This document shows, in pieces, positions 1,039 through 15,840 of a stretch of 15,840 nucleotides of DNA (the stretch's first letter is position 1; each line of letters begins with the position of its first letter). A model generated the notes under the pieces. That model was given only the letters and a program-made list of their open reading frames with translations. It was not told the origin of the DNA and ran no database searches. The translations under genes and the position numbers were made by a program. The stretch is from a virus (Duplodnaviria > Heunggongvirae > Uroviricota > Caudoviricetes). The DNA lies in IMG/VR virus record IMGVR_UViG_2737471850_000008, positions 1-15,840 of that record. One strand, 5' to 3'.

Positions 1039-1213
1039 TTTTCCGATGCTCCCCCTAAATTTTTGAAAAAATTAGAAGTGGTCAGAAATCACCCTGATTT
1101 GTTGGTGGTTTTGTATATATCTCTGTTAGTGATTTGAGCATTGGTGCAGTACGTTAATGTAGGTATGGCTATAGTTCAGGCTGTGCAAAGTATTTCAGTT
1201 CCGCATCTCACGG

Positions 1214-1738: not shown

Positions 1739-2639
1739 TTTCAACAACAACCGCAAGCGATTTCAGGCGTGGAACACTCAGTTCGCTGGTGATATCACCC
1801 AGTGAAAAAGACAGTGATTCCGTCTGAGCAAATGTCCTGTGGATCTCCCGCCCCAGCTGAGAAAAGGAAAAACGCGAATATGGCCACGTCTTCCTGACGT
1901 CATAATCAGCATTCTCACGAAAAGCACAGCGGATCATGTTCTCCACCCCGTCCTTCAGGGTTTTCCTGTCCTCATCGCTGAAATTGGCCAGATTTTTGAC
2001 ATAAACTGTGACGGACAGATCATGAAGCGTTTCCGGCATGGGATAGCACTGCATATCATCACCGTGGCCGTGATGCCCCTGCGTGTTGATATAGTCATTG
2101 ACGGCATCCACGAACGGCGAAGAAGCCACCCCGCTGTCCAGCAACAGATACGCGTTGGCGGTACCGGGTCCCCTCGGCGCTTCATGTTCAAAGAAAATCC
2201 GGTCAATACTCAGCCCTGCAACGCCGGCAATCATCGACCGGTAAACGGCGTCAGTGTGGTAATTCCCCACCAGATTGAACTGATTGCGGCAGCGTTCGCG
2301 CAGCTCGTCATCACTTTCTTCATCCGCGCCCGGTACGGTCAGCCAGTTTTCTTCGCTGGCCACGTGGCTGATACCGTCAACGGCAACCGGCAGAATGCGG
2401 TAATATCCCGGCGCAAGGTTATATGCGCCCCCGGTGCCGGTGGCTTTTACCGGCAGTAATGCGCAGGCCGTACCGGAAGCGATCACTACATCCTCACTGG
2501 TGGCCAGCTCATACACGCGACCGTTAATGCGCTCTGTCTGGATACTGCCCCAGCCCGGTGTCCCGCTGTGCCGGGATGAACGCGATCTCGTCCATCTGGC
2601 TGTCAAATCCCTGCATTGCCCGTCTGGGCATGTTCGCAA
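1731..2639 (-). CDS. J: P2 gpJ-like baseplate protein; 5' end anomalous (TTG start in ORF track, Arg/Ser-rich first ~35 codons; possibly frameshifted or truncated)
   Basis: Central region ESDDELRERCRNQF resembles recalled P2 gpJ (ESDTDYRLRIQQAF). Size matches gpJ (302 aa). An ATG-initiated 35-codon ORF in another frame (ATG at 2631, MPRRAMQGFDSQMDEIAF...) overlaps the annotated N-terminus. Stop TGA at 1731-1733. Confidence 0.55.
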   Translation of the reverse strand: MRTCPDGQCRDLTARWTRSRSSRHSGTPGWGSIQTERINGRVYELATSEDVVIASGTACALLPVKATGTGGAYNLAPGYYRILPVAVDGISHVASEENWLTVPGADEESDDELRERCRNQFNLVGNYHTDAVYRSMIAGVAGLSIDRIFFEHEAPRGPGTANAYLLLDSGVASSPFVDAVNDYINTQGHHGHGDDMQCYPMPETLHDLSVTVYVKNLANFSDEDRKTLKDGVENMIRCAFRENADYDVRKTWPYSRFSFSQLGREIHRTFAQTESLSFSLGDITSELSVPRLKSLAVVVENE

Positions 2640-2669
2640 TGAGAAAATCGGTTAATGCCGTTAACTGGC

Positions 2670-3122
2670 TCATATCATGGCCACCGTAATGCGTTTCAGC
2701 CCTTTGATGCGGCGTACTGCCAGTGTGGACTCTGCAATCAGGCTGGAGCGGGTTTCGTCACTTTCCTGCCCCGGATGGCTCTCACGGCGACCAACAGACG
2801 CAAATTCGCCCATCAAATCAGCTTTGGCACGTGCATATACCGCTTTGCGATAACGGGCGCACAACAGATTTTCGCCGTCAATTTCCACGCCCGAAACGTC
2901 CGCCGCGCGCTCATGGCCAGCATTGCGATACCTTGCCGCCACACTGACCAGATCATCATTGATTTCGCCGGCTGCAGTCAGCAGTGCCTGGCGGATGGTG
3001 GCCGCATCAATATCGGCCGGAATGGTGCGCTGGGACTGAAAATCTTTCACGCTCAGGTCAGGCCAGAAGCCATCATTCGTCAGAGTGGCATCGTCAAAAT
3101 CAATTGAAGTTCCGCTGAACAT
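2670..3122 (-). CDS. L: P2 gpL-like head completion/stabilisation protein
   Basis: ATG at 3122 preceded by GGAG (SD); the track ORF starts at an upstream GTG (3161). C-terminal pattern ADVSGVEIDGENLLCARYRKAVYARAKADLMGEF resembles recalled gpL. It follows the M gene as in P2. Confidence 0.75.
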   Translation of the reverse strand: MFSGTSIDFDDATLTNDGFWPDLSVKDFQSQRTIPADIDAATIRQALLTAAGEINDDLVSVAARYRNAGHERAADVSGVEIDGENLLCARYRKAVYARAKADLMGEFASVGRRESHPGQESDETRSSLIAESTLAVRRIKGLKRITVAMI

Positions 3123-3215
3123 CCTGTTTCTCCGGAAAAAAGCGGGCTGGCCGGTTTCCACGGGCGATACGCTTATGCGATCCCCTCCACCGCGCCCGCT
3201 TTCGGGTCGGTAGTC

Positions 3216-3407
3216 TTACTCGCCGCGTTTTGCGGCCTGAATCTCACCTTCTTCAAACCACGCATCAGATGCGCGGCCGTCAGCAGTCTGATAGTGGATC
3301 AGATACTGATTGCAGCTGTTGGTGTACTCCGCACGGGCTTTGATATGCCCCTCTTCGCCGCTAATGGAAACTTCAACAACCTGGCCTAACTCATGCTTAA
3401 ACGACAT
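3216..3407 (-). CDS. Hypothetical 63-aa acidic protein inserted between small terminase and head completion genes
   Basis: ATG at 3407 lies 1 nt after the TGA of gene M (TGATATG coupling) and is preceded by GGGAG. No P2 gene occupies this position. No family recognised. Confidence 0.5.
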   Translation of the reverse strand: MSFKHELGQVVEVSISGEEGHIKARAEYTNSCNQYLIHYQTADGRASDAWFEEGEIQAAKRGE

Positions 3408-3408
3408 A

Positions 3409-4122
3409 TCAAACTCCCGTAGACTCTTTTTTCAGCGCCCGCAGACGCGCAGCAATACGCTGCAACATCGTGCCAACACCACATTTAGGGTCGAATCCCT
3501 TCGCCTGCTCCAGCAGTTCCTTAGCCCGGAGCAATACTTCCCTGTCTTCCGTTGCCGCTGCGCGTGGCTCTCCGTTTTCATCGCGTAGCAGGTGCAGACC
3601 GGCAAACTTCAGGTATTTGGCCTTAATGACCTCATACACATTCCAGTGCTGCGTCACGTTTTCCAGCGTACGGCCAAAATACGGCTCCACATCATGCCCC
3701 TGTACGGCTTCCGCTTCCGCCCAGGACAACACCGTATCCGCCACAAACACCGGGAACGTACTGCCGAACGCGGCCGGGGTTTCCTGCCCCCGCTGGATTG
3801 CCACATCCGCCCAGTCCAGCGCCTGGTCAAACTGGCCTGTATCAAACAGCCAGACGACACACCAGGCAAAAACAGGATTCTGTTGCACACTGTCACCTTC
3901 CAGCCAGGATTGCGCGGTTGGCATCCAGCGCGGTAACAGCACATCACGCTTAAATTCCATTCGCTCAGCGCGGCTTTCAATCGCTGCAGCTGCGGCGACA
4001 TCTTTCTCCAGCGCGACAATCTGAATATGCAGGCTGGTTTCCGTGTCCAGAGACTGCTGCTGTCGCAGTAACCGCTCCGCTTCAATTCGTGCGCTGTGGC
4101 GCTGTGCCGGTGACAGTTGCAT
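3409..4122 (-). CDS. M: P2 gpM-like terminase small (endonuclease) subunit
   Basis: 237 aa; ATG with AAGGGGGAT SD; positioned between N and L as in P2; sequence character consistent with the gpM family (from memory). Confidence 0.8.
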   Translation of the reverse strand: MQLSPAQRHSARIEAERLLRQQQSLDTETSLHIQIVALEKDVAAAAAIESRAERMEFKRDVLLPRWMPTAQSWLEGDSVQQNPVFAWCVVWLFDTGQFDQALDWADVAIQRGQETPAAFGSTFPVFVADTVLSWAEAEAVQGHDVEPYFGRTLENVTQHWNVYEVIKAKYLKFAGLHLLRDENGEPRAAATEDREVLLRAKELLEQAKGFDPKCGVGTMLQRIAARLRALKKESTGV

Positions 4123-4132
4123 TAAATCCCCC

Positions 4133-5161
4133 TTACTCGCCTGCCGGAGGCGCGACAGGTGCCCCGATAGCTACCGCACTTTCATCAAACGCGGCGTACA
4201 GTTCCGGATACTCAACCGCATAACCTTCGTTACGCAGGTATTTGTTTTCGTACTGTTTACGGTCTTCCACAAACTCCGCTTTACGCTGACGCGTGCCGCG
4301 CTGGGTGTAGATGTGCAGGTTTGGCAGTGTCGTAACAATCATGCGTTTGCCTGGCATAAACGGCGGTACGTAAGCCGTGCGGCCGGCGATGCTGTCAGAC
4401 AGCAGTTGCGCGGCGATCTTCTCCGTGGGTTTGTCTGCTTTCTGATACAGACGGAACGACTCCGCCGCGACCAGATCAGCGCCGACAAGAACCACCAGGC
4501 GTGGATCATTACGGTACTGTGCCGGGATTTTGGCGTTGATAAGGTCGGAGGCCATTGCATCCAGCGACACGTAATCGCCTTTCCCGTCACCGTCAAGCAC
4601 CACCGCATCAGTGATGATCTGCTGGCCGTCCTTCCACTCTTTGACGATCTGATGCCAGCCCTTGTTCACATCCTCGCCGTTCGGGTTGGTTTCCGCGTTC
4701 GTGGTCTCGGCCACTTTGGTACCGTTAAAGCCGATACGCAGCATATCCAGCGCAAACGCCTGATTGGTGAACTCCTGAACACGCTGGAAAAACTCGTTTT
4801 CATCGCCGGCGTTCGCCCAGACAGAAAGCAACTGCCAGGTGAGTGCGGCGCATGAGTCGGTCTCGACCAGACTGTAATCATTACCACTCACGCCCACTTT
4901 CTTACGGAAGCGGCCATCCAGTACACGCCCGGTATACAGGCCAGAGCTGCCAACCGGAACCACCTGCCCCTGCAGCTGATCGACATCGGCAACGGTGATC
5001 AGATTCAGGAAATCAGACTGCTCCATCAGCGCATTGCGCAGCTGGGTTTCTTTGGGGTCGGTGAGTGCAAACCAGCGTTCGCTGTCGGTCGCCCCGTAGG
5101 ATTCACGCAGCCCGGTGTGATACTGAAGCAGAAACTCACGGGCTTTCGCATTTAATTGCAT
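4133..5161 (-). CDS. N: P2 gpN-like major capsid protein
   Basis: 342 aa; ATG with AAGGA SD; C-terminal region (DPRLVVLVGADL...YVPPFMPGK...) resembles recalled P2 N (DPDLVVIVGRQLL...VPYFPAD); lies in O-N-M order. Confidence 0.85.
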   Translation of the reverse strand: MQLNAKAREFLLQYHTGLRESYGATDSERWFALTDPKETQLRNALMEQSDFLNLITVADVDQLQGQVVPVGSSGLYTGRVLDGRFRKKVGVSGNDYSLVETDSCAALTWQLLSVWANAGDENEFFQRVQEFTNQAFALDMLRIGFNGTKVAETTNAETNPNGEDVNKGWHQIVKEWKDGQQIITDAVVLDGDGKGDYVSLDAMASDLINAKIPAQYRNDPRLVVLVGADLVAAESFRLYQKADKPTEKIAAQLLSDSIAGRTAYVPPFMPGKRMIVTTLPNLHIYTQRGTRQRKAEFVEDRKQYENKYLRNEGYAVEYPELYAAFDESAVAIGAPVAPPAGE

Positions 5162-5195
5162 ATTCTTTTTCCTTAAAGAAAAGTAGTGTTATCCC

Positions 5196-6035
5196 TTACA
5201 GGAAATTGAAGCCTTTTTTGCCCTTGCTGAATTTCTTGTCCGGCAGTTGAGTAACTTTGTTATTCAGCTTGCTGAAGTTTTTCACCAGCTCCGGCAGGTT
5301 CCCCACCAGACGCGCAAAATCTTCGGTGTCCACTACTTCCTTCACGGTGTCCACATCGTCCTGCACATCAGATACCGCTTCTTCCGCCTCACCCAGACGG
5401 GTTTCAATAGCAGATACGCGCTTATCAATGGCATCCAGCGCTTCAGCCAGCGCCTGTAAGGCATCAGACTGTGAAGGTTCCTGCTCCGGGGTCTGCTCCG
5501 GTTCTTCGATACTGAAAAAATGGCGCCAGCCCTTTTTCGCTGTCTTTGACATTCCCTTTTCCTTTTTAAATTCCCTGACTTCATCAAACGCCAGCGGCTT
5601 GTATGGTCCGATGCGTTTTCCCCTGGTGCGGCTGAAACGTAACCGTGTGGTGCTTACCCCGGCCGGACTGTCAGTAATGGCCAGTCCCTCAAGATAGGTT
5701 TTCCCGGTATTTCTGAAATTGCCGTCCGGTGTAAACTCCGGTGATAAAAATAAAAGCTGACCGTCTGCATTTGCCTGTAGCAATGAAATCGCCGGACAGA
5801 GGCGGGCATATAAACGAAGAATACCTTCATCATCCCGCTCGGCTTTTACTTCCAGCACCTCCCCCATATTCCCGAAATTACGGGAATGTTCCGGCCATAA
5901 CAGCGCGGTATACAAAGAGGGGTCATATAATTCAGCGGCATCAAGCAACCATTGTTCTTCAATAAATCGCTTATCAACCGTTTCACCCGCAGTGGCGATA
6001 CAAATCCAGTTTGTTGCCAGTTGTGAACCTGACAT
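5196..6035 (-). CDS. O: P2 gpO-like capsid scaffolding protein/protease
   Basis: ATG at 6035 (MSGSQLATNW...) preceded by GGAGG; the track ORF extends to 6095. N-terminal WICIATAGETVDKRFI...GEVLEVKAE resembles recalled gpO (FFRIGVEGDTCDGRVI...GDVAELKAE). Acidic C-terminal half typical of scaffolds. Confidence 0.8.
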   Translation of the reverse strand: MSGSQLATNWICIATAGETVDKRFIEEQWLLDAAELYDPSLYTALLWPEHSRNFGNMGEVLEVKAERDDEGILRLYARLCPAISLLQANADGQLLFLSPEFTPDGNFRNTGKTYLEGLAITDSPAGVSTTRLRFSRTRGKRIGPYKPLAFDEVREFKKEKGMSKTAKKGWRHFFSIEEPEQTPEQEPSQSDALQALAEALDAIDKRVSAIETRLGEAEEAVSDVQDDVDTVKEVVDTEDFARLVGNLPELVKNFSKLNNKVTQLPDKKFSKGKKGFNFL

Positions 6036-6163
6036 ATTGCCTCCGTTCATGCTGCGGTTTTCAGTATCGCCAATAAAATTAACCGCCGCATTCACTTCAT
6101 TTCGGATATAGGCTATTAGCCGAACACATCAGAAATAAAGCGGGATTTAATATACAAACGCCC
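6036..6163. promoter_or_regulatory. Divergent intergenic region between O and P; expected location of late promoters
   Basis: Position between divergently transcribed head operons, as for P2 PO/PP. No canonical TGT-N12-ACA Ogr box was found by eye, so promoter elements are not defined. Confidence 0.35.
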
Positions 6164-7960
6164 GTGCATAATGTGTGCATGGCTAAATATTCAGAAGAAT
6201 TAAAAGGCGTTGCGCGGGCGCTTTATTTAAAACGCTATACCCCGCAGGAAATTGCCAGCGAACTTAATCTGCCTAACAGACGCATTGTCTATTACTGGGC
6301 GGAGAAATATTGCTGGGCGGAATTACTCAGTCATGAATCCACCGAAGATGCATTAAACCGTCGCATTCAGTCACTGACATTACGTGAAGGGAAATCGGAG
6401 CTGGAGCTGCGGGAGCTGGACAGTCTCGTTTCTCACCTGGTGAAACTACGTGCACAGCACAATAAGCATCAGGAAAAGCTGGCAGAAATTAAACACAGTG
6501 AAAATGATGCGCCGGCGCGTCAGTCCGGTGGCGACGAAAAGCCCCGGAAACGTGGCAAGTACAAAAAGAACGACATCAGCGGACTGACACAGGAAGATTT
6601 TGACCGGTTCGCGCTGGAGCACCTTTTCGGTTACCAGAAACACCTTCGCGCTAATCTTCATCAGCAAATCAGGAACATCCTGAAAAGCCGCCAGATTGGT
6701 GCAACCTGGTATTTCTCAATAGAAGCCTTTGAGAATGCGGTCATGACAGGCGATCCGCAAATCTTCCTGTCCGCATCAAAGGCTCAGGCGGAAGTATTCC
6801 GCAGCTATATCGTCAACATTGCGGAGCAGTATTTCGGCGTGGAGCTGACGGGAAACCCCATCCGCCTCTCCAACGGCGCGGAGATGCGATTCCTGTCCAC
6901 CAACAAGAACACCGCCCAGTCATACAGCGGCCATCTGTACTGCGATGAATATTTCTGGGTACCCAACTTTGCAAAATTAAACGAAGTGGCCAGCGCGATG
7001 GCCACACACGACAAATGGCGAACCACCTACTTTTCCACCCCCAGCAGCAAAACGCACCAGGCGTACCCGTTCTGGACTGGTGAAGAATGGAAGCGCGGTG
7101 ACAAAAAACGCGCGCGCGTACAATTTCCCACGGAGAAGGAGCTGCGCGACGGTGGACGGTTATGTCCTGATGGGCAGTGGCGCTACATCATCACAATGGA
7201 AGACGCGATCGCAGGCGGGTTTAATCTCGCCAGCATCGGGAAGCTGCGCAACCGCTACAACCGCGACACTTTCAACATGCTGTATATGTGCGTGTTCGTG
7301 GACAGCAAGGACAGCGTATTTTCGTTCTCTCACGTAGAACGCTGCTGTGTAGATCCGGATATCTGGGAGGATCATGACGAAAACCTGCCCCGGCCGTTCG
7401 GCAACCGTGAAGTGTGGGCGGGTTATGACCCGGCTCGCAGCGGAGACACCTCCACCTTCGTGATCATCGCGCCGCCGATAGTGGCCGGCGAAAAATTTCG
7501 GGTACTGCGTGTATTCCACTGGCAGGGGATGAACTGGAAGTGGCAGGCGGCACAGATTAAGAAGCTGTTTGGCCAGTACAACATGACCTACATCGGCATT
7601 GATATCACTGGACTGGGTAGCGGTGTCTTTGAAGACGTTCAGCACTTTGCCATGCGTCAGGCAGTGGCGATCCGCTACGGCGTCGAGACCAAAAATCGTC
7701 TGGTGATGAAGATGATCGACGTTATCGAAGACGGCCGCGTGGAATGGGATAAGGAGAAGACCGAAATCGCCGCCAGCTTTATGACCATCCGCCGTACGTC
7801 CACGGCCAGCGGCAACGCAATGACTTTCGTCGCCGATCGCACAGCAGAAACAGGACACGCAGACAGTTTCTGGGCTATCGCCCATGCCATTGACAACGAG
7901 CCATTAAACTTTGAAAACCAGCGAAAATCACGCTGGGGTAACTTAGGGAAAGCAGCATGA
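6164..7960 (+). CDS. P: P2 gpP-like terminase large (ATPase) subunit
   Basis: About 593-598 aa; the track start is GTG at 6164 and the first ATG is at 6179 (MAKYSEELKG). Size and position match P2 P. Stop overlaps the Q start (ATGA at 7957-7960). Confidence 0.85.
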   Translation: MHNVCMAKYSEELKGVARALYLKRYTPQEIASELNLPNRRIVYYWAEKYCWAELLSHESTEDALNRRIQSLTLREGKSELELRELDSLVSHLVKLRAQHNKHQEKLAEIKHSENDAPARQSGGDEKPRKRGKYKKNDISGLTQEDFDRFALEHLFGYQKHLRANLHQQIRNILKSRQIGATWYFSIEAFENAVMTGDPQIFLSASKAQAEVFRSYIVNIAEQYFGVELTGNPIRLSNGAEMRFLSTNKNTAQSYSGHLYCDEYFWVPNFAKLNEVASAMATHDKWRTTYFSTPSSKTHQAYPFWTGEEWKRGDKKRARVQFPTEKELRDGGRLCPDGQWRYIITMEDAIAGGFNLASIGKLRNRYNRDTFNMLYMCVFVDSKDSVFSFSHVERCCVDPDIWEDHDENLPRPFGNREVWAGYDPARSGDTSTFVIIAPPIVAGEKFRVLRVFHWQGMNWKWQAAQIKKLFGQYNMTYIGIDITGLGSGVFEDVQHFAMRQAVAIRYGVETKNRLVMKMIDVIEDGRVEWDKEKTEIAASFMTIRRTSTASGNAMTFVADRTAETGHADSFWAIAHAIDNEPLNFENQRKSRWGNLGKAA

Positions 7961-8976
7961 AAAAACGGAAATACAGGGAACGCCGCACCGCCAGCAAGCC
8001 GCGCCATATGAGCCTTATTACCCTGGGTAAACCGGAACCCATTCTGACGACCGGCACAAACTACACAGACGTCTGGTATGACAATGAAGCGGAACACTGG
8101 ACGCTCCCGATTGACCGGCTGGCGCTGGCGCAACTGGTGAACCTGAACGCGCAGCACGGCGGTGTGCTGTATGCCCGTCGCAATATGGTGACGGCAAACT
8201 ATAAAGACGGCGGACTGACGCATGAACAGCTTGGTGCAGCCGTGTTCGACTGGCTGACCTTCGGTGATGTGGCCATTCTGAAAGTGCGTAACGGCTGGGG
8301 GGATGTGGTGGCACTGTACCCGCTGCCGGCACTCTATACCCGCCAGCGTAAGACCGGGGAGTTTGTGGTACTGCAGCAGGGTGAACCGATGATTTATCCG
8401 CCTGAAGATATTATTTTTCTCAGGCAGTACGATCCGCAACAGGCGATTTATGGTCTGCCGGATTATATCAGCGGTATCCATTCTGCCCTGCTTAACGGTG
8501 AGGCAACAATTTTTCGTCGGCGTTACTACCATAACGGCGGACACACAGGTGGCATGATCTACTGTAACGACCCAAATATGACTGATGAAGTGGAAGAAGA
8601 AATTATTCAGAAGCTGGAGCAGTCAAAGGGGATCGGGAACTTCAGCACCATGTTTGTGAACATCCCCAAAGGCGATCCGGACGGCATCAAATTTATCCCG
8701 ATTGGGGATATCAGCGCCAAAGATGAGTTTCAGAACATCAAGAGCATCAGCGCCCAGGACGTACTGACCGCGCATCGATTCCCGGCAGGACTGGCGGGGA
8801 TTATCCCGACGAACGGCGCAGTAATGGGAGATGTTGAGAAAGCGTCCAAAACCTACCGCAAAGCAGAAATTTTGCCCATTCAGCGCATGTTTACCGCCGC
8901 AGTGGAACAGGAAAGTGATGTACCGCCCCACCTGTACCTTAATTTCCTGAAAGACAGTGAGCTGGAAGGTGATTAA
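7957..8976 (+). CDS. Q: P2 gpQ-like portal protein
   Basis: 339 aa versus about 344 aa for P2 Q; translationally coupled to P; family identification from memory. Confidence 0.85.
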   Translation: MKKRKYRERRTASKPRHMSLITLGKPEPILTTGTNYTDVWYDNEAEHWTLPIDRLALAQLVNLNAQHGGVLYARRNMVTANYKDGGLTHEQLGAAVFDWLTFGDVAILKVRNGWGDVVALYPLPALYTRQRKTGEFVVLQQGEPMIYPPEDIIFLRQYDPQQAIYGLPDYISGIHSALLNGEATIFRRRYYHNGGHTGGMIYCNDPNMTDEVEEEIIQKLEQSKGIGNFSTMFVNIPKGDPDGIKFIPIGDISAKDEFQNIKSISAQDVLTAHRFPAGLAGIIPTNGAVMGDVEKASKTYRKAEILPIQRMFTAAVEQESDVPPHLYLNFLKDSELEGD

Positions 8977-9029
8977 TGTTCGCAAAAAGGCTAAAATATC
9001 ATCGTTTTCCAACTTCCGGAGCGATGGAT

Positions 9030-9305
9030 ATGCGGGTAATGAAGGTTTACTGTCCGGTATGTGAGGCAAGGGCTGTTATCAAAAAAACAGCCCGAAAACA
9101 CAAGGAACTGTCGGATTTATATTGCGCGTGTACCGATGTTGAATGTGGTCACACTTTTGTGATGAATATGACATTCTCACATACCATCAGCCCCAGCGCC
9201 AAATCCAGCGATGCGTTGATCGCCACTATCTGTAACAGCCTTGATATCCAGCAAAAGCAGCTGATGTTAAAGTTTCTGAGTCAGGACGGCACTGCTGCCG
9301 CATAG
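9030..9305 (+). CDS. ogr: Ogr/Delta-family zinc-finger late transcription activator, with a C-terminal extension relative to P2 Ogr
   Basis: CPVC...(22 aa)...CACTDVEC four-cysteine arrangement, as in Ogr/Delta. GGAG 9 nt upstream of the ATG at 9030; alternative starts at 9024 and 9042; the track ORF begins at 8976. Confidence 0.75.
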   Translation: MRVMKVYCPVCEARAVIKKTARKHKELSDLYCACTDVECGHTFVMNMTFSHTISPSAKSSDALIATICNSLDIQQKQLMLKFLSQDGTAAA

Positions 9306-9306
9306 A

Positions 9307-9337
9307 AAAAAGCACCGCTACCGGTGCTTTTATTTTC
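9307..9337 (+). terminator. Rho-independent terminator after ogr
   Basis: Stem AGCACCG / CGGTGCT (9311-9317 and 9322-9328), loop CTAC, followed by TTTTATTTT; A-run upstream. Confidence 0.75.
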
Positions 9338-9383
9338 TGAGATGTAACAGATTCCCATCTATCAACGTCGATGAATGACCAAG

Positions 9384-9444
9384 TGATTAATAGTCCCCCC
9401 CTCCTAAACATGATATTATCTTTCCAAATTTTGGGAGGCATCTT
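9384..9444 (+). promoter_or_regulatory. Putative promoter and RBS of the glycosyltransferase moron, containing a C7 homopolymer
   Basis: TATTAT (9414-9419) as candidate -10; TTAATA/TGATTA about 21-24 bp upstream as candidate -35; C7 run at 9395-9401 lies between them; strong SD GGGAGG at 9432-9437. Confidence 0.3.
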
Positions 9445-10164
9445 ATGTTAATAGTCTCAGTTCTTAAATGTAGTAAAGAGTTTACCCCTAAACACGCCCA
9501 ATGGCTTCATCGTCAGTTCAAAGATATTCCATCTATATGTTTAACCGATGCAGATAATATTCCTGGAGTTAACACAACCCCTTTGCTTTATAACTGGCCG
9601 GGATGGTGGTCTAAAATTGAACTATTTAATCCTAATCACCCAGTCCTTGGAGACCAAGATTTACTCTATTTTGACGTAGATGTTGTGGTCACGGGAGATA
9701 TTCATATTTTCGAAGGTGCGAAGAAATTTACAATGCTTCGGGAGTTTAACCATGCCTCAAGAGTAAACTCATCAATAATGATGATTCCGGCGTCGATTAA
9801 AAAGACGATTTGGGAACAATTCATTATTGATCCTGAGAAAATTATGCGCAATTGTCAGACTGAAGACAAATGGGGTGATCAGGGATTTCTCGGTAGCATC
9901 ATAAAACCAGCCCTATGGCAGGATATCATTCCTGGCTCAATTGTTAGTTATAAATGTGACATCGCCACCCCCTCGATGATTGGCTTCAATGCAAATTTAG
10001 CCTCTGAGGCTGCGACAGGGAAAGTCCCTGATAATGTGGCGGTTGTTTGCTTTCATGGCAGTCCACGCCCCTGGCGTACTGGTTTTGATTGGGTTCCTTC
10101 GTTTTCCCTGCGGGATACTCTGTACGGTAAATTAAAGAACTTTAAAATAAGAATGAAGCAATAA
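9445..10164 (+). CDS. GT8-family-like (glycogenin/LgtC/RfaJ-type, DxD) glycosyltransferase; AT-rich moron
   Basis: Motifs in GT8 order and spacing: DxD (LLYFDVDVVV), NSS (cf. FNSGV), WGDQGFL (cf. GGDQGILN), CFHGSPRPW (cf. HFxGxxKPW). AT-rich compared with the flanking phage genes. Strong SD and ATG. Confidence 0.6.
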   Translation: MLIVSVLKCSKEFTPKHAQWLHRQFKDIPSICLTDADNIPGVNTTPLLYNWPGWWSKIELFNPNHPVLGDQDLLYFDVDVVVTGDIHIFEGAKKFTMLREFNHASRVNSSIMMIPASIKKTIWEQFIIDPEKIMRNCQTEDKWGDQGFLGSIIKPALWQDIIPGSIVSYKCDIATPSMIGFNANLASEAATGKVPDNVAVVCFHGSPRPWRTGFDWVPSFSLRDTLYGKLKNFKIRMKQ

Positions 10165-10201
10165 AGATAACGCCCCTATTGCTTCAATGTTCGCTCCTTC
10201 C

Positions 10202-10219
10202 CCTAACAATAAAGTTAGG
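10202..10219. terminator. Hairpin CCTAAC-AATAAA-GTTAGG between the convergent glycosyltransferase and primase-helicase genes; possible bidirectional terminator
   Basis: 6-bp perfect inverted repeat read directly; AT-rich stem, so weak. Confidence 0.3.
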
Positions 10220-10232
10220 CACTAGTGAACCG

Positions 10233-12890
10233 TTACTTTTCCCGGCCAAATATCCAGCAGCGGAATGTTTCCGGCATCCGTTGCATATCCCCTTTACCAC
10301 GATTATGGCGCTCACTTACCGCGCTGCGCGTGGTGCTTTGTCTGATAAACCGGCGCTCATTGCCGTTTTTAAGCAGCTTTTTAATTTCCGTTAACGTGAA
10401 CGGAATACGCTGCCGGTGTGCTGCGGCGACCTCTTCCATGTGATTGAAATTAACCGCGATTTCATTTTCATCTGATGAATGATTGATGCCATAAGGTGCC
10501 AGTTCATCCAAGTAATCAAACAGCTCCCAGAACTCCTGCACCAGAGGATGATCCTTTTTAAGTGCCTGACAACGTTCAACGGCCAGCGCGGTGATGGCTT
10601 CACGCGTTTTTTCTATACGTTCAACCGGCACCGGTACAACAAGTGCAAGCGCCTCCAGCAAGCCCACAAGCTGCGCGTGATTCTTTGCAATACGGATATG
10701 GCGAATACTGCTATTAGACTCCAGCTCATTCCTAGCTCGCTCGTACCCCCTGCCGAACGTCTGCATGATTTCTTTTTCGCGCATGGTGGCCAGTAATGTG
10801 AATCCGGATACCTGGCTAACGGGGAGTTGTTCAAGTCGTTCTGCAGCGTGGCGCGTCTGAATGGACTGGCCGCGCTTGTCGGTATAGATGTGGATGATAC
10901 GCTCCAGAAACGCCTTGCTGCCGTCTGTGTCGGCATTTTGCGCTATCACAATACTTCCCCTGAACGGCGGCTCATACGTCTCGTTATTGTTCGATTTGAT
11001 ACCCACGGCGCGGGAGGCACGACCGTTATACAGTGATTTCAGCTCGTCCCAGTCAAAAGCGCGTTGCTTGGCGTTATCGGTAGTACGGTCGCCCTCAATC
11101 AGCACAACCGGCAGATTACCGACCTGGGCGAAGTTACGGCCACGCGCGGCGGCGGTAGATTTAGATGGGTCAAACCCTTCGTATTCCTCACGGCCGGCGA
11201 GCTTCCAGAGAAATTCTATCAGCGTGGATTTACCTGTCCCCGGCTCGCCCACGATTTCCAGAAACGGAAATGACTTGTCACGCTCGCGGATTTGTTCGGC
11301 AAACAGCGACCCCAGCCAGAACGCCAGCGCCACATACCCTTTTTCACCAAATGCCGTCCAGATATCGTCTACCCAACCCGTAGTAAACTCGTTCAGCTTC
11401 GGATTCAGATCCAGCGCCGGCGTGAGGCTCAGGCTCTTAACGCTGGCACTGTTGATTTCGAAGTAATCCTCGTCGTTCATCTCATACAGCCGGCCATCGC
11501 AAACGGCCACGCGGTTAAACAACCAGGCGGCATAATCCTTGTTATAGCCGATGAAATTCTGCGTCTTTACCTCTTTGATTTCAGGGAGGCGCATCTGGAT
11601 GAACTTATCCAGCTGTTTGGTGCTGCCTGTGTACACCGCCCCTTTGGCGATGTGCAGCAGACGCTTTTTGAACTCGGCGGAGCTGGTGAGCTGATTAGCC
11701 GTGAAAGTATCTTTCACGGCTGGCCGGTTAGGCATACTGACTTTCACGTAATACCAGGACTCGTCCGTAGGTTCAGACCGCTGAAAGTAAAGCGGCGTCA
11801 GCCAGCAGTTAGCTATTTCGGTCACGCCGCCTGACTCTTTAACCGCCCGTTCTTTGGCCTCCCACTCCATCACCACTTCGGTACCGGTATTGGTGATGCG
11901 CTCATAGGCTCGCATATACCTGTCCAGATCCAGCTCAAACCAGTACATGCGGGAGTTATGCTCAAAGTAGAACGAGTGCCACTCGTTATGCTGATGCATG
12001 AGCAGCGCTTTCTCAGTCGGGCTTTTTGCCAGAAGGAGATCGCCATAGTAGCGATAATTTTTAATGTCCGACTTACTGAACCGGTTACGTAACAACAGGT
12101 CATTCCAGTCCAGCGATGCCGATGATTTCACCGGCTGCGCGGCACGAGTTTTCCATCCTGCAGCATCACTACGGGCAGCGAACGCCAGTGTGTGCTTTGT
12201 GCCGGCTTTATCGCCGTCAAACGCCCATACAAGACGTGGACGTGGTTTTTCACCCAGTTCTTTGGCCAGCGTATCCAGTGCGGCCAGCGGATAGTTGTTA
12301 CTGCTCAGTGTGGCAACTGCAGGTAACCCTACCTGGCACAGACTCAGCGCGTTGAAGATTCCCTCAGTGATCCAGATTTCGTTCACTTCCTGCAGGTTGA
12401 TAAAGGGAGGAACCCACCAGTGACCGACATAGCTTCCCCTGATGTTGGCTTTCTGCTTACCGAAGCGCTGCGGCTGGTCAATGATGCGCTCCCATGTTGC
12501 ACCGCATGACAGCGAAAATCTGACCGTTGCCGACCCCATGCCATCTTTCACGAATGCACCCTGGGTAAAACAGCCTTTTAATGGCTCAGTCTCCAGCCCT
12601 CTGGCCTCGCGCAGATACGCCTCAGCTACTGCATGGGGGTTATCTTCTGTGGTCTGGTAACGTTTTGACCAGTCTTCAAAGATATCCGGATACAGCTCTT
12701 TCACGACAATCTGATGTGCGCAGTTATTTTCACGGCCACATTTCAGAATCCAGGGCTTTTCTATGCTGGTAAATAATTCGCGCTTACGACAGGCAGGGCA
12801 AACGCCCTGCTGCAAATACTTATCCCGCTCTTTAAATTCAAAGTCCCGAACAAGACGGCGCACAACGTCCTGTTGTATCGTTTCGTTCAT
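10233..12890 (-). CDS. Primase-helicase of the P4 alpha type (zinc-binding N-terminus, Toprim primase, P-loop NTPase)
   Basis: ATG at 12890 (MNETIQQ); the track ORF starts at TTG 12926. CPACRK...(16 aa)...CGRENNC zinc motif; Toprim-like ITEG and FDGDKAG; Walker A GEPGTGKS and Walker B-like VVLIEGD. Confidence 0.8.
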   Translation of the reverse strand: MNETIQQDVVRRLVRDFEFKERDKYLQQGVCPACRKRELFTSIEKPWILKCGRENNCAHQIVVKELYPDIFEDWSKRYQTTEDNPHAVAEAYLREARGLETEPLKGCFTQGAFVKDGMGSATVRFSLSCGATWERIIDQPQRFGKQKANIRGSYVGHWWVPPFINLQEVNEIWITEGIFNALSLCQVGLPAVATLSSNNYPLAALDTLAKELGEKPRPRLVWAFDGDKAGTKHTLAFAARSDAAGWKTRAAQPVKSSASLDWNDLLLRNRFSKSDIKNYRYYGDLLLAKSPTEKALLMHQHNEWHSFYFEHNSRMYWFELDLDRYMRAYERITNTGTEVVMEWEAKERAVKESGGVTEIANCWLTPLYFQRSEPTDESWYYVKVSMPNRPAVKDTFTANQLTSSAEFKKRLLHIAKGAVYTGSTKQLDKFIQMRLPEIKEVKTQNFIGYNKDYAAWLFNRVAVCDGRLYEMNDEDYFEINSASVKSLSLTPALDLNPKLNEFTTGWVDDIWTAFGEKGYVALAFWLGSLFAEQIRERDKSFPFLEIVGEPGTGKSTLIEFLWKLAGREEYEGFDPSKSTAAARGRNFAQVGNLPVVLIEGDRTTDNAKQRAFDWDELKSLYNGRASRAVGIKSNNNETYEPPFRGSIVIAQNADTDGSKAFLERIIHIYTDKRGQSIQTRHAAERLEQLPVSQVSGFTLLATMREKEIMQTFGRGYERARNELESNSSIRHIRIAKNHAQLVGLLEALALVVPVPVERIEKTREAITALAVERCQALKKDHPLVQEFWELFDYLDELAPYGINHSSDENEIAVNFNHMEEVAAAHRQRIPFTLTEIKKLLKNGNERRFIRQSTTRSAVSERHNRGKGDMQRMPETFRCWIFGREK

Positions 12891-12929
12891 AAATAATCCA
12901 GATGTGAAATAATGGGTAAAAGGCAAAAA

Positions 12930-13148
12930 CTATATTCTGTACTGCTTGTTATATCGCTCATGTGTCATTAGTTCCCAGCTTCTGCCCTTATCCTTACTCA
13001 GTAATCGCCAGTGATAAGAAACATGAACAGAGAAATAATGTTTTGGCTTAATAACCTGATATACCTTTTTGCCGTTGTAATATTCTGTCAGCACTGAAAA
13101 TGCCTTGTGAATGACACTTTCACTTGCATGAGAGGTCACTGTAAGCAT
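12930..13148 (-). CDS. Hypothetical 72-aa protein
   Basis: ORF between the exonuclease and primase genes with ATG 2 nt after the exonuclease stop; weak SD; AT-rich; no recognised motifs. Could instead be non-coding regulatory DNA. Confidence 0.35.
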   Translation of the reverse strand: MLTVTSHASESVIHKAFSVLTEYYNGKKVYQVIKPKHYFSVHVSYHWRLLSKDKGRSWELMTHERYNKQYRI

Positions 13149-13150
13149 CG

Positions 13151-13720
13151 TTATTTCACACTGGCTATTTTTACAAGATACATCCAGACATAAGAAACAA
13201 CTTTAGCCTGATGAATGGCATCATATAAAGCGTGATGTTTAACACCATCAAACTTAATAATATTACGAACATTCAGCCCAAGTGTTTTTGACAGTTCAAC
13301 AACCGTTCTTACATCACGGTCATTCCAGTAGTACCAAAGTGGATCGGCAAACCCGCATTTCTCTGATGCATTACGTAAAATAACATTGTCGAACGCTGCA
13401 CTATTCCCCCATACCTGTACTTTAGATGGGTCAGAATGCTCAGTAATAAAAGCTTCCAGATTAGCTAACGTCAGAGGCAAGTCCAGACAATCGTCATTAA
13501 GCAGCTCGCTACGCGCTTCGGCATCCTGACGCATCCACCATAATACGGTTTCTGACCCCATAGTGAGACCGTGGCCTACACAGCTGCCCAGGCTGACACG
13601 TTGATAAAACTGTTCACCCATTTCGCCAGTTTCAGGGTCAAAGAATACAGCACCGATAGAAGCAATCGCAGAAGTCGGTTTATTATCCATTGTTTCAAGG
13701 TCAATCATTAAATGTTTCAT
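13151..13720 (-). CDS. DEDDh-family (DnaQ/RNase T-like) 3'-5' exonuclease
   Basis: Exo I MIDLETMD (D-x-E), Exo II WGNSAAFD, Exo III HHALYDAIH (H-x4-D). ATG with AAGGAA SD. AT-rich. Confidence 0.8.
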   Translation of the reverse strand: MKHLMIDLETMDNKPTSAIASIGAVFFDPETGEMGEQFYQRVSLGSCVGHGLTMGSETVLWWMRQDAEARSELLNDDCLDLPLTLANLEAFITEHSDPSKVQVWGNSAAFDNVILRNASEKCGFADPLWYYWNDRDVRTVVELSKTLGLNVRNIIKFDGVKHHALYDAIHQAKVVSYVWMYLVKIASVK

Positions 13721-13729
13721 ATCGGTTCC

Positions 13730-14065
13730 TTAACGTTGGGAAGCTGCAACAGATTTAAGATGCGAGTTATTACTTTTTAACGCTGTGGTAGCCAGCGACA
13801 TAAGACCGGAAATGTTATTTTCAGTTGGTATATTTCCGCCAAATACCATAAGCGTGATTTTGTGCAGTTCTTCAAAATCATCACTATCATTATTAAAGCG
13901 AGCAGTGGAGGTTATACCCTCAAGGCATTTTGCAAGCTGAATGTTTAATTCCATTAACTGCAAGCCATCGCTATGTACAGAGAATGTTTCTTTATCAATG
14001 GTTTTTGCCTGAGCGTGATAGTTTTGCAACAGACTACGAATCAGCGTGGCATATTTAGTCTTCAT
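13730..14065 (-). CDS. Hypothetical protein (about 111 aa) in the early operon
   Basis: ATG at 14065 with GGGGAT SD (track start is TTG at 14077); 26 bp downstream of cox; AT-rich; no recognised domain. Confidence 0.5.
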   Translation of the reverse strand: MKTKYATLIRSLLQNYHAQAKTIDKETFSVHSDGLQLMELNIQLAKCLEGITSTARFNNDSDDFEELHKITLMVFGGNIPTENNISGLMSLATTALKSNNSHLKSVAASQR

Positions 14066-14091
14066 GATAATCCCCAATAATATTTAGTTTA

Positions 14092-14373
14092 CTAACGAGC
14101 ACTTTTATCTTTCGTGAATAAACGGTTCTTCCAGTCATGCCATTCAGGCGGGGCAATTTGAGCCAAATGAATGGCATAAGCATCCCATTCCCCCCGATGG
14201 ATATAGATTTCCCCACCTTTTTTTGATGGATTTAGAGGGTCTTTCATGCGGATTACCGGCAGTTTTCCAGCCGTGGCCATTTTGCGAATTGCAGCAGGCG
14301 TTTTGCCTATATATTCGGCAAAAAGCTCAGGGGTCACCAACTCTGAAAGCGCCTTTTCTGCTGGTTCCTTCAT
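14092..14373 (-). CDS. cox: P2 Cox-like excisionase / transcriptional regulator
   Basis: 93 aa; segment ELFAEYIGKTPAAIRKMATAGKLPVIRMKDP resembles recalled P2 Cox (QEFAKLIGKSTGAVRRMIDKGKLPVIDMTDP). Divergent from C. SD AAGGAT. Confidence 0.8.
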   Translation of the reverse strand: MKEPAEKALSELVTPELFAEYIGKTPAAIRKMATAGKLPVIRMKDPLNPSKKGGEIYIHRGEWDAYAIHLAQIAPPEWHDWKNRLFTKDKSAR

Positions 14374-14481
14374 CTGTGGTATCCTTCGTTAGTTTGGGTT
14401 CCTAGGGCGCTTTAAGTCGTTCTAGGGTTCTTTTGTCAAGGTTCTTTTGTAAGAACCAACAATAGTTGCGATACAAGAACC
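14374..14481. promoter_or_regulatory. cox-C switch region with candidate operator repeats (face-to-face Pe/Pc promoters expected by analogy with P2)
   Basis: Direct repeats TTC(C)TAGGG at 14399-14407 and 14420-14427, about 21 bp apart. Tandem GGTTCTTTTGT at 14426-14436 and 14440-14450. Inverted GGTTCTT...AAGAACC at 14440-14457, and another AAGAACC at 14475-14481. Confidence 0.6.
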
Positions 14482-14781
14482 ATGTCAAGAAATTATGCGG
14501 AGAAACTCCGGCAGATCCGGAAAGCTGAAGGGTTAACTCAAAAAGATTTTTCAGAGCTTACTGGGGTAGCTCTTGGAACAATAAAAAAGTACGAAACTGG
14601 CCATCAGCCAGCTCGTGCAGAAGTCTTAGAAAGTGTTATAGAGGTACATATGTTTGAAAAATATACACTCTGGTTAATGACAGATAAGACGGCACCAATT
14701 GCGGGGCAGGTGTCCCCGTCTCTCTCCCCTGATGGGCAAGACAACATAACATCATCCCGTTCCACCCGGAAAATTGGCTAA
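14482..14781 (+). CDS. C: P2 C-like immunity repressor
   Basis: 99 aa (same as P2 C). LTQKDFSELTGVALGTIKKYETG helix-turn-helix and KYTLWLMTDKTAPIAGQVSP closely resemble recalled P2 C (KYTLWFMTNQIAPESGQIAP). Confidence 0.85.
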   Translation: MSRNYAEKLRQIRKAEGLTQKDFSELTGVALGTIKKYETGHQPARAEVLESVIEVHMFEKYTLWLMTDKTAPIAGQVSPSLSPDGQDNITSSRSTRKIG

Positions 14782-14847
14782 ACATCTGGTTTTTCTATGC
14801 GTTAGCGCAAAATTTACATAATGATTCATACATCGGAGGGCTTCGCT

Positions 14848-15840
14848 ATGTCGATTAAGAAGCTTGATGATGGTCGTTTTGAAGTGGACGTTAGACCGCG
14901 CGGAACCTCAGGAAGAAGGATTCGACGCAAATTTGACAGAAAGGCGGAAGCACAGGCATACGAGCGGTATGTACTGACAAACTTTCACGATAAAGAATGG
15001 CAGGATAAACCCGCAGACAGGAGGCTTGTATCCGAGTTAATTTCTTTATGGTGGAGCTACCATGGAAAGAATCACAACTATGGTGACTCATATAAAAAGC
15101 GTTTGGAAAAAATCAACCGAGAAATGGCGGAACCCAGAGTGTACGAGCTTACCCGCAACTTTCTGATGAAATATCGTGCAGAACGACTTCATAGTGGAGT
15201 ATCTGCTGGCACGGTAAACAGGGATTTCTGTTCCATGTCCAGCATGTTCAGTTTGCTGATAGATATGGAAGAATTTCATCACGAAAACCCGTTTCGCGCC
15301 GTGAAGAAGTTACGTCTGGAAAACACAGAAATGTCATTTCTGTCCGAAGAAGAGATCCACCATTTGCTGAATGCCCTTACAGGGGATGATCGCAGAGTTG
15401 TCGTTCTTTGCCTGAATACAGGAGCACGATGGGGTGAAGCCAGTAATCTTAAAGCTGAAAACGTGATAAGTAACCGTGTGACCTTTGTTAAGACCAAAAC
15501 CGGCCCAGCTCGTACTGTTCCGATATCGAAGGAAATCGCGGACTACATCCTTACACGCAAATCGGGGAAATTGTTCGATACCAACTATGAGCGAGTTCGC
15601 GATGTTCTTCGTAAGATTAAGCCAGACTTGCCGAAAGGTCAGGCACTGCATGTTTTACGCCATACCTTCGCAACACATTTCATGATCAACGGCGGGAATA
15701 TCATCACGCTACAGCGTATTTTGGGTCATACAACAATCGAGCAAACAATGACATATGCTCACTTCGCCCCAGATTATCTGACTGATGCCATACGATTTAA
15801 CCCTATGCGTGGGAGTGTCCACATAATGTCCACCGACTAG
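14848..15840 (+). CDS. int: P2-type tyrosine integrase
   Basis: ATG at 14848 with GGAGGG SD (track ORF starts at 14821). MSIKKLDDGRFEVDVRPRGTSGRRIRRKFDRK closely resembles recalled P2 Int (MAIKKLDDGRYEVDIRP...RIRRKFDKK). C-terminal HVLRHTFA...H...Y catalytic-type residues. Stop TAG at the window end. Confidence 0.9.
   Translation: MSIKKLDDGRFEVDVRPRGTSGRRIRRKFDRKAEAQAYERYVLTNFHDKEWQDKPADRRLVSELISLWWSYHGKNHNYGDSYKKRLEKINREMAEPRVYELTRNFLMKYRAERLHSGVSAGTVNRDFCSMSSMFSLLIDMEEFHHENPFRAVKKLRLENTEMSFLSEEEIHHLLNALTGDDRRVVVLCLNTGARWGEASNLKAENVISNRVTFVKTKTGPARTVPISKEIADYILTRKSGKLFDTNYERVRDVLRKIKPDLPKGQALHVLRHTFATHFMINGGNIITLQRILGHTTIEQTMTYAHFAPDYLTDAIRFNPMRGSVHIMSTD

Follow-up and report, generated by a model that had tools for sequence, protein, structure and literature searches.

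A three-gene block with a DexA/Rv2179c-family exonuclease in the predicted early operon of an Evevirus-type P2-family prophage

By sequence, the solved structure closest to the exonuclease described here is T4 DexA (PDB 8KEL/8KEN; E 2e-9, about 31% identity), an enzyme of a virulent phage with hmC DNA, and the founder of its Pfam family PF16473 is Rv2179c from Mycobacterium tuberculosis, an exoribonuclease by family name. EcD, the sole family member from E. coli to have been studied experimentally, degrades T4 DNA but not unmodified dsDNA in vitro and protects E. coli from T4 when expressed from a plasmid, the one form of expression for which protection is reported; an acidic residue (DexA D169, EcD E145) is held to be necessary for 5hmC recognition, and EcD is presented as a bacterial defence gene, with no mention of a prophage (PMC12153337). 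Among P2-family phages, 186 has a DEDDh exonuclease gene, orf82 (CP82), between the regulatory and replication genes of its early operon, which the database record lists as "unknown function; not essential", and P2 has orf78, B and orf80-83 between cox and the replication gene. Our literature search returned no functional account of PF24732, PF16473 or Rv2179c in connection with phage, and nothing functional on DEDDh proteins in phage defence or on HigB-like proteins with phage.

The DNA analysed here (the window) is a stretch of 15,840 nucleotides, positions 1 to 15,840 of IMG/VR record IMGVR_UViG_2737471850_000008. It comes from an Evevirus-type, P2-family prophage of E. coli, an element type found in 19 of 5426 genomes, and is a deletion remnant that is collinear with phage ESSI2_ev239 except for two deletions. 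Its virion genes include the P2-family capsid, scaffold, both terminase subunits, portal and gpL, together with ogr. A phage satellite, either P4-like or otherwise helper-dependent, was considered and rejected on the basis of these genes and the ESSI2_ev239 collinearity with its two internal deletions; the initial annotation, which had envisaged deletion analysis during helper-phage infection, was mistaken in that framing. The features of the early region are:

10233..12890, minus strand: toprim primase/DUF5906 helicase-type replication gene (phrog_1139, 1239 bits; Toprim_3 and DUF5906)
12930..13148, minus strand: 72-aa basic (pI 9.8) solitary ParE_like protein (PF24732, E 1e-16; phrog_1525, E 4e-31)
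13151..13720, minus strand: 189-aa DEDDh 3'-5' exonuclease of the DexA/Rv2179c family, a catalytically complete allele (PF16473, E 1e-67; phrog_255)
13730..14065, minus strand: 111-aa all-helical protein, divergent DUF4754-like (phrog_7058; hhalign to a DUF4754-containing alignment)
14092..14373, minus strand: cox (excisionase/repressor), gene 1 of the early operon (PF10743 Phage_Cox, E 8e-25)
14459..14488, minus strand: Pe-like early promoter, TTGACA-18-TATTGT (10 of 12 consensus positions)
14482..14781, plus strand: C-type immunity repressor, HTH_3, divergent from the early operon (PF01381, E 1e-9; phrog_147, E 4e-34)

Three genes in tight minus-strand series lie between cox and the toprim primase-helicase gene, downstream of the Pe-like promoter, with gaps of 26, 9, 2 and 39 nt from cox through the block to the primase. 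Their boundaries are as first annotated, except that 14077, given as the upper end of the 111-aa gene, is an upstream in-frame TTG that would yield 115 aa; the ATG at 14065 has GGGGA upstream and gives the 111 aa of the RefSeq annotation. The slot is, as initially stated, the early-operon position of P2 orf78, B and orf80-83. We take the three ORFs as real genes and not chance ones because each protein has many homologues, the gene order is conserved and the exonuclease evolves at a dN/dS of about 0.1. The block has a GC content of 40.7% (38.7, 42.3 and 38.4% for the 111-aa, 189-aa and 72-aa genes), compared with 46.8% for cox, 52.4% for the primase, 52.9% for the terminase and portal genes, 56.4% for the capsid gene and 49.4% for the whole window, which bears out its description as AT-rich relative to cox and the head genes. 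Below-average GC is also seen in the repressor and integrase genes (45-46%) and in orf239 (41%).

The Pe-like promoter is the only strong match in a consensus scan of 12700-14850, and there is an overlap between its -35 element and the beginning of the divergent repressor gene, an arrangement also seen in P2. It is predicted that this promoter should drive cox and the whole block. Consensus scanning found no minus-strand terminator-like site between cox and the primase gene and no internal promoter in the block above shuffle expectation, and the primase-helicase (885 aa from the RefSeq start) is the next gene after the block in the same operon. We infer that the block most likely shares a transcript with cox and the primase-helicase, made only on infection or once repression by C has been relieved.

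The conservation survey proposed at the outset gave a uniform picture, with the order cox, 111-aa gene, exonuclease, ParE-like gene and primase in 30 of 30 complete Evevirus-like IMG/VR loci. The same five-gene order was also found in Salmonella and Cedecea genomes, and one Klebsiella contig shows it with the exonuclease gene truncated and the ParE-like gene not called. A cognate trio, in which a DUF4754-like gene is followed by an exonuclease-like gene and then a ParE-like gene, occurs in Reipivirus-type phages of Klebsiella and in an E. coli P2-like prophage at the dmsA site, both lineages having an A-type nickase in place of the primase. Each block protein is a member of a family already seen in P2-family phages. 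The initial annotation had held that its suggestions would fall if all three proteins were conserved core early genes of P2 relatives with a defined replication role; they are conserved core early genes of the P2-like lineage, but no defined replication role was found for them. At 80% identity the exonucleases fall into seven classes, the 111-aa genes into six, the ParE-like genes into three and the primases into two; alleles of the block genes recombine freely, and their distance correlations fall off with map distance. Both small genes are missing nearby in 72 of the 80 loci gathered by exonuclease similarity, and elsewhere, in other temperate and lytic phages, the ParE-like gene adjoins methyltransferases, ParB-like genes or hypotheticals. 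The small proteins, first described as partners of the exonuclease, are therefore not demonstrable partners, and the exonuclease and the ParE-like protein as an obligate pair were likewise rejected, given the loci without a ParE-like gene and the reassortment of alleles. It is proposed, at what we judge to be roughly even chances, that the block is a conserved accessory middle part of the Pe early lytic operon, consisting of independent, dispensable genes kept in ancestral order. It is probably not one machine, nor a toxin-antitoxin pair, nor a defence expressed in the lysogen.

The two small genes had been called unknown; small they are, but neither is an orphan, one belonging to PF24732 and the other being a divergent relative of DUF4754, and the suggested profile searches placed all three proteins by way of PF16473, PF24732 and hhalign, with no NCBIfam model matched by any of them. 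The 111-aa protein has no direct Pfam match at E <= 1, PF15946 included. Its assignment to a divergent branch of DUF4754 comes from profile-profile alignment: hhalign against an alignment whose first sequence matches PF15946 at E 1e-15 gave a probability of 96.4% and E 1e-9 over 87 columns. The protein has in common with DUF4754 (PF15946) the N-terminal M-K-x-x-Y...L-L-Q-x-Y-H and G-(D/N)-I-P motifs, and DUF4754 genes of P2-like prophages occupy this same part of the operon, with cox on one side and the exonuclease on the other; the window protein is 30 residues longer and has a disordered tail. It belongs to a narrow family that comprises 43 clusters at 90% identity and has about 4 representatives in a set of 1.84 billion proteins. 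Structure prediction, likewise suggested at first, gave an AF2 model of this protein in which three helices form a bundle and the tail is disordered (pLDDT 74.7); for the 72-aa protein the low-quality model has one helix and a beta-hairpin (pLDDT 57).

The 72-aa protein matches PF24732 ParE_like with 60.7 bits against a cut-off of 24.4, carries the invariant family motif RWRLLSK..G..W.LMTHE.YN and is named "ParE family toxin-like" in RefSeq; other annotators label homologues HigB-like or mRNA interferase. Like the RelE/ParE/HigB toxins it is basic, and its C-terminal LMTHERYN resembles VMTHKEYD of E. coli HigB, whereas those toxins are about 90-105 aa long. With an E. coli HigB query that matched a genome at 100%, hhalign against the ParE-like profile aligned 9 residues at a probability of 4.6%. 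Foldseek with the poor 72-aa model returned no match at E <= 0.001, and PDB searches with profiles of both small proteins yielded nothing credible. A RelE/ParE fold is putative, its basis being the Pfam family name only. The PF24732 match and the RefSeq name, together with a start 2 nt after the exonuclease stop, could be read as a toxin-antitoxin or addiction pair in which the ParE-like protein is the toxin and the exonuclease-fold or 111-aa protein the antitoxin, and the adjacency of exonuclease-like and ParE-like genes in three lineages at 27-39% identity, even with a dead exonuclease, is in keeping with it. The gene has no conserved neighbour across phages, however, the upstream gene being variously an exonuclease, a Dam methylase, a ParB-like protein, a 66-aa coiled-coil protein or a hypothetical, which suggests that the ParE-like protein has no cognate antitoxin. 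Virulent phages carry it too, there is free reassortment between exonuclease and ParE-like alleles, and a repressed lytic operon, the predicted setting of the pair, is ill-suited to addiction; we consider such a pair highly improbable.

The 189-aa protein is, by family and intact active site, a DexA/Rv2179c-family DEDDh exonuclease in our sequence comparison, as first annotated. The PF16473 match (227.6 bits, cut-off 27) covers protein residues 2-179 and profile positions 1-177 and so spans the Rv2179c family in full length. All five catalytic residues are in place, D7, E9, D111, H162 and D167 aligning with D7, E9, D119, H186 and D191 of DexA, which is the only chain that phmmer reached in the PDB at E <= 0.01. 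None of the five is lost from the window allele or from 21 further Evevirus loci, and in an alignment of the 118 closest homologues each residue is retained by 115-117. About 40% of Evevirus alleles, that of the type phage ESSI2_ev239 included, and every Reipivirus-type allele lack two or three of the catalytic residues. The changes are D111>H/R/N, H162>R/N/G and D167>H/Q/K in 15 Evevirus-type loci, and E9>I, D111>K and H162>R/C in 38 of 38 Reipivirus-type alleles from Klebsiella. Catalytic residues have been lost more than once with length, position and purifying selection kept: dN/dS is 0.08-0.12 in the degenerate alleles and about 0.1 in the complete ones, rough values with dS near saturation for several pairs. 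Occupancy of the slot therefore does not always depend on nuclease chemistry. One possibility is that the exonuclease-fold slot is selected for a nuclease-independent role: the protein would bind, as a dimer, 3' ends, a host protein of replication or repair, or a small nucleic-acid ligand, and the window allele would have kept catalysis as an extra. This would accommodate the repeated losses and the fact that conservation is highest in the N-terminal ~45 residues and in the C-terminal helix, in active and degenerate alleles alike. It is quite unlikely in our estimation, since the complete alleles and their homologues keep the catalytic residues at a dN/dS of about 0.1 and catalysis is therefore under selection in this class. 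Complete and degenerate alleles in one slot form a natural series that could show a role of the DEDDh fold beyond cutting nucleic acid.

Under the accessory-gene reading, the exonuclease would most likely degrade DNA from free 3' ends in a DexA-like manner. Its candidate substrates are oligonucleotides, single-stranded DNA and DNA in a specific state of modification, and within minutes of the onset of lytic growth it would serve to salvage nucleotides, to process ends or to attack non-self DNA. It could also be RNA rather than DNA that is degraded, because PF16473 is named for the exoribonuclease Rv2179c. The ParE-like protein would most likely be a takeover factor hitting host translation or gyrase, and the DUF4754-like protein may be a small protein-binding adaptor. 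The initial annotation named a replication or recombination accessory, anti-defence and superinfection exclusion as conceivable roles and favoured none of them; all three are still candidates. In a reading of the block as an anti-defence module, an immune signal or effector made of nucleic acid (linear oligonucleotide messengers, for instance, or retron or guide DNA) would be cleared by the exonuclease, and the small proteins would inhibit other host defences. Early timing, the AT-rich, small and fast-diversifying genes and the recurrence of the ParE-like gene among the accessory early genes of many unrelated phages, both temperate and lytic, are what such a module might look like. The block proteins show no similarity to described defence or anti-defence proteins save for a weak PADLOC match of the exonuclease to a generic CRISPR-associated DEDDh model (E 1.6e-5), PADLOC giving no other defence-system match, and DEDDh enzymes (DnaQ-like superfamily) require a free 3' end, so that cyclic oligonucleotides are poor substrates. 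We regard the anti-defence module as very unlikely.

A gene was located that matches EcD exactly in the 17-nt forward primer, in A78 and, save for a 1-nt indel, in the reverse primer; EcD (HAK9828821.1), mapped in this way via primers and A78 and not by its deposited sequence, appears from its neighbours to occupy the same P2-like prophage early-operon slot as the window exonuclease. The reverse primer as printed gave 0 hits in one search and one chance hit in the other, and the 120 homologues nearest to the window exonuclease do not include EcD. This precedent of T4 DNA degradation and plasmid-borne protection raises the prospect that the exonuclease is an HREX-type inter-phage weapon against the modified DNA (5hmC or other) of superinfecting T-even-like phages, with either the lysogen or a cell supporting growth of the P2-like phage as the beneficiary; P2 itself has anti-T-even genes, e.g. 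tin. Two HREX features are present in the window protein, the tryptophan equivalent to DexA W152 (W132) and L83 in place of the tetramer residue D90, whose absence goes with the dimer-only state. The acidic 5hmC-reading residue, by contrast, is missing: none is found in 143-148, where K145-T146 stands against E145-S146 of EcD and R168-D169 of DexA in a loop whose alignment is uncertain by 1-2 columns. Among active Evevirus alleles the DexA D169 column holds T, D, A, N or V, a variability that fits the expectation for a specificity position. The gene also lies within an early operon that is predicted to be repressed, and the consensus scan gave it no separate promoter, whereas in P2 the known exclusion genes are active in the prophage state; for EcD the evidence comes solely from plasmid-borne expression, and many alleles in the same slot are catalytically dead. 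We hold an HREX-type weapon to be unlikely, while giving it some weight.

If the DUF4754-like, exonuclease-fold and ParE-like genes were an ancestral early cassette of a large P2-like branch with a nuclease-independent core function, which we consider rather unlikely, that function might be, for example, a binder of 3' ends or of a host protein joined with a small ribosome- or gyrase-directed toxin for cell takeover. Active alleles such as those of the window and EcD would then be secondary specialisations in which modification is read via variable residue 146, and what was published as a "bacterial HREX defence" would turn out to be an early-lytic gene of a prophage.

In comparison with known systems, the window exonuclease has the DEDDh pentad and the tryptophan in common with T4 DexA and differs in length (189 versus 227 aa, DexA having extra loops), in having D80 and L83 where DexA forms its temperature-dependent tetramer via S87 and D90, and in T146 at the position of D169. 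Phage 186 orf82 is similar in operon position but belongs to another subfamily, PF00929 RNase_T, and reaches the window protein only at E 0.022 in BLASTP; a 285-aa RNase_T-type gene directly follows a ParE-like gene in one locus (L045). P2 orf78, B and orf80-83 have no detectable homology to the block, neither small protein matching any of them, and P2 has no exonuclease or ParE-like gene here. The block alone would be routine phage annotation. An experimental parallel is EcD, which shows about 35% identity to the window exonuclease, is of the same family and about the same length, and has a DUF4754 gene before it and a ParE-like gene directly after it, in a prophage that differs in having an A-type nickase, carrying Dam and adjoining dmsA. 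Its apparent placement in a P2-like early lytic operon changes how the defence claim would be tested, bringing in native regulation, lysogens and induction.

The AT-rich block is securely placed as an accessory section of the P2-family early operon, where members of its three gene families recur. As the initial annotation proposed, it lies between cox and the replication gene and is poor in GC (40.7%; cox has 46.8%, the primase 52.4%, terminase and portal 52.9% and the capsid gene 56.4%). The interval 12930-14077 assigned to it there does hold three ORFs, arranged head to tail with spacings of 9 nt and then 2 nt, but its upper limit has to be corrected, 14077 being an in-frame TTG upstream of the ATG of the 111-aa ORF.

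14488..14459, minus strand: promoter-like site, TTGACA-18-TATTGT, the sole strong match in 12700-14850
14482..14781, plus strand: C-type repressor gene, divergent from the block, as is the integrase gene
14373..14092, minus strand: cox (PF10743), upstream neighbour of the block
14065..13730, minus strand: 111-aa ORF, ATG start with GGGGA in front
13720..13151, minus strand: 189-aa ORF, PF16473 exonuclease
13283-13285: codon T146 of the exonuclease, aligned with T4 DexA D169, the proposed 5hmC-reading residue
13148..12930, minus strand: 72-aa ORF, PF24732
12890..10233, minus strand: toprim/DUF5906 primase-helicase, 885 aa, downstream neighbour of the block
9445-10164, plus strand: 239-aa ORF, 41% GC, between ogr and the primase
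103-678, plus strand: acyltransferase-type ORF, Acyl_transf_3 match to the C-terminal part only (profile 125-322)

The repressor, integrase and 239-aa ORF also fall below the window mean of 49.4% GC. The -35 element of the promoter-like site overlaps the start of the repressor gene, the same arrangement as in the P2 Pe promoter; within the block, consensus scanning gave no promoter above shuffle expectation and no minus-strand terminator. We infer that cox, the block and the primase would share one transcript, starting at this repressor-controlled early promoter.

Of 5426 complete E. coli genomes, 19 have a chromosomal copy of the 1.8 kb surrounding the block at more than 99% identity. The copy examined, in strain HZ13, belongs to a prophage beside pheL-pheA that shares about 85% identity with Escherichia phage ESSI2_ev239 (Peduoviridae, Evevirus). 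The window holds P2-family capsid, scaffold, small and large terminase, portal, gpL and ogr genes, and lacks ESSI2_ev239 307-5563 (tail-fibre and baseplate genes) and 6807-13668 (tape measure, lysis, tube, sheath and tail-completion genes), with junctions near 1300 and 2544 (segments 1300-2544 and 2543-8027). On account of these two missing segments the window is a defective prophage remnant; virion genes and deletions together rule out the satellite implied by the earlier reference to helper-phage infection. The baseplate J gene is cut off and abuts gpL. A search of complete E. coli genomes met this exact deletion pattern nowhere; HZ13 carries an IS5-associated deletion in its place. The 239-aa ORF has no Pfam or PADLOC match, and its slot is variable, with two small minus-strand genes in ESSI2_ev239 and a 432-aa gene in the Klebsiella contig L012; the locus may serve for cargo or lysogenic conversion. 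The acyltransferase-type ORF is the counterpart of an O-acetyltransferase that lies beyond the integrase in ESSI2_ev239, whereas in the window it sits at the other end of the remnant, beside the truncated tail genes.

The 189-aa protein matches PF16473 (Rv2179c-like) over its full length (E 1e-67) as well as phrog_255, in a large family (993 clusters found, nearly all of about 185-195 aa) whose members nearly all go by the name 3'-5' exonuclease or exoribonuclease. Its closest solved structure is T4 exonuclease A, DexA (8KEL/8KEN, E 2e-9), to whose catalytic residues D7, E9, D111, H162 and D167 align, bearing out the DEDDh call. A 2025 paper (PMC12153337) reports that DexA alternates between dimer and tetramer, that its action on 5hmC DNA requires W152 and D169, and that an E. 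coli homologue, EcD, cleaves T4 DNA while sparing unmodified dsDNA and, expressed from a plasmid, guards cells against T4. The window protein keeps the tryptophan (W132), but the tetramer residue D90 is replaced by L83, and K145-T146 stands where EcD has E145-S146 and DexA R168-D169. In the middle of the gene, 13205-13590 has no detectable nucleotide similarity to ESSI2_ev239, while both ends are 83-88% identical; an allele boundary therefore lies inside the exonuclease gene, making it an intragenic mosaic.

That paper gives no EcD sequence; a candidate gene was located through the forward primer in its supplement, which matches six IMG/VR contigs exactly. These encode an Rv2179c-like protein beginning MIDTET at an internal Met, with Ala at position 78, in agreement with PMC12153337, and the gene ends at the reverse primer site save for a 1-nt indel.

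L117:4152-4979 and L126:6510-7328 (E. coli G1/2): candidate EcD locus, by primer and residue matching

This candidate is carried by 31 of the 5426 E. coli genomes. The G1/2 copy, the one examined, lies in a P2-like prophage adjoining dmsA, in the order int, repressor, cox-like gene, DUF4761, DUF4754, small ORFs, exonuclease, ParE family toxin-like gene, Dam, further genes and replication endonuclease. If the identification holds, EcD would fill this slot in a sister lineage, at about 35% identity to the window protein, and the published 'bacterial' anti-T4 nuclease appears to belong to the early operon of a P2-like prophage, a context that PMC12153337 does not mention and that is worth passing on. 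The window exonuclease may likewise act in EcD-type defence, a reading weakened on three counts: it lacks the acidic residue, its gene sits in an operon that is probably repressed, and the published work relies on plasmid expression.

Residue alignment puts the window allele, with 21 further loci, in a catalytically complete class. Among loci L013-L044, the catalytically complete Evevirus alleles have T, D, A, N or V at the column of DexA D169 and retain the basic residue preceding it. At 15 Evevirus-type loci, the type phage ESSI2_ev239 included, the slot is occupied by a 186-aa version in which D111 is changed to H/R/N, H162 to R/N/G, D167 to H/Q/K and W132 to Gly; all 38 of 38 Reipivirus-type loci have E9 changed to I, D111 to K and H162 to R/C.

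L002:6450-7010: degenerate allele, ESSI2_ev239 gp30
L004:2914-3480: degenerate allele, Klebsiella phage ST16-OXA48phi5.4 gp09

These degenerate alleles (15 + 38 IMG/VR loci), short of two or three of the five catalytic residues, keep length, position and intact reading frames, and dN/dS is about 0.1 in every class, active or degenerate, with dS near saturation for several pairs. They show that the slot can stay occupied for something besides catalysis, which suggests a nuclease-independent function in those phages; the allele series also deserves passing on.

The 111-aa protein has no direct match in Pfam, NCBIfam or PADLOC and no homology to P2 orf78, B or orf80-83. It belongs to phrog_7058, and its close family is restricted to prophages of Enterobacterales, with 43 clusters at 90% identity and, among 1.84 billion proteins, about four representatives at 50%. 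The family HMM picks up weak relatives of 125 aa in Reipivirus-type phages and of 90 aa in another P2-like contig group, encoded in the corresponding part of the operon. The 80-aa counterpart in the candidate EcD prophage is a genuine DUF4754 member (PF15946, E 1e-15), and profile-profile comparison of the two alignments (probability 96.4%, E 1e-9, 87 columns) makes the 111-aa protein a divergent DUF4754 relative.

The 72-aa protein is basic (pI 9.8) and matches the PF24732 'ParE-like toxin domain' (E 1e-16) and phrog_1525, sharing with its relatives the motif RWRLLSK-x2-G-x2-W-x-LMTHE-x-YN. Its putative RelE/ParE fold rests on Pfam curation and other annotators' HHpred-based labels: the structure model scores poorly (pLDDT 57), comparison with solved toxins by fold and by profile yielded no significant match, and likeness to E. 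coli HigB is limited to a 9-residue C-terminal motif. Relatives occur in many phages with neighbours that differ case by case: exo-like > ParE-like > methyltransferase > A in Klebsiella Reipivirus-type phages, two flanking methyltransferases in Salmonella phage SI7, an upstream ParB-like gene in Serratia OS31, and hypothetical genes in lambdoid early-left operons; virulent Sortsnevirus phages have them too. Since the neighbours are never constant, there is no cognate antitoxin, and a toxin-antitoxin reading of the block, prompted by the domain match, has little positive support.

The order cox > 111 aa > exo > ParE-like > primase is kept in 30 of 30 complete Evevirus-like IMG/VR loci and in Salmonella and Cedecea chromosomes, so the trio is a core part of the Evevirus-type early operon. 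One lineage may show decay of the block: in L012 the exonuclease ORF (5340-5978) is shortened to 136 aa, and the 228-nt gap ahead of the primase contains no called ParE-like gene. Despite the fixed order, alleles reassort: at 80% identity the repressor falls into 15 classes, the 111-aa gene into 6, the exonuclease into 7, the ParE-like gene into 3 and the primase into 2, and pairwise-distance correlations drop with map distance (exo-ParE 0.47, ParE-primase 0.61, 111-exo 0.32). Among 80 loci gathered by exonuclease similarity alone, a ParE-like or DUF4754-like gene lay within 3.5 kb in 8, all P2-like, and neither in 72. Given this reassortment and the many loci without the small genes, the three thus look like independent accessory genes in an inherited order. 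A precedent is found in phage 186, whose early-operon gene orf82 encodes an RNase_T-type DEDDh exonuclease recorded as 'unknown function; not essential'.

The most economical reading is that they help in early lytic growth and are expressed along with the replication gene: the exonuclease, DexA-like and of 3'-5' polarity, would attack free 3' ends, the solitary ParE/RelE-like protein would target something in the host, and the 111-aa protein may be a small helical adaptor. The anti-defence role also raised by the initial annotation, such as degradation of short nucleic-acid signals, has little positive support. Public databases already contain the three families, their gene order and the phage genus.
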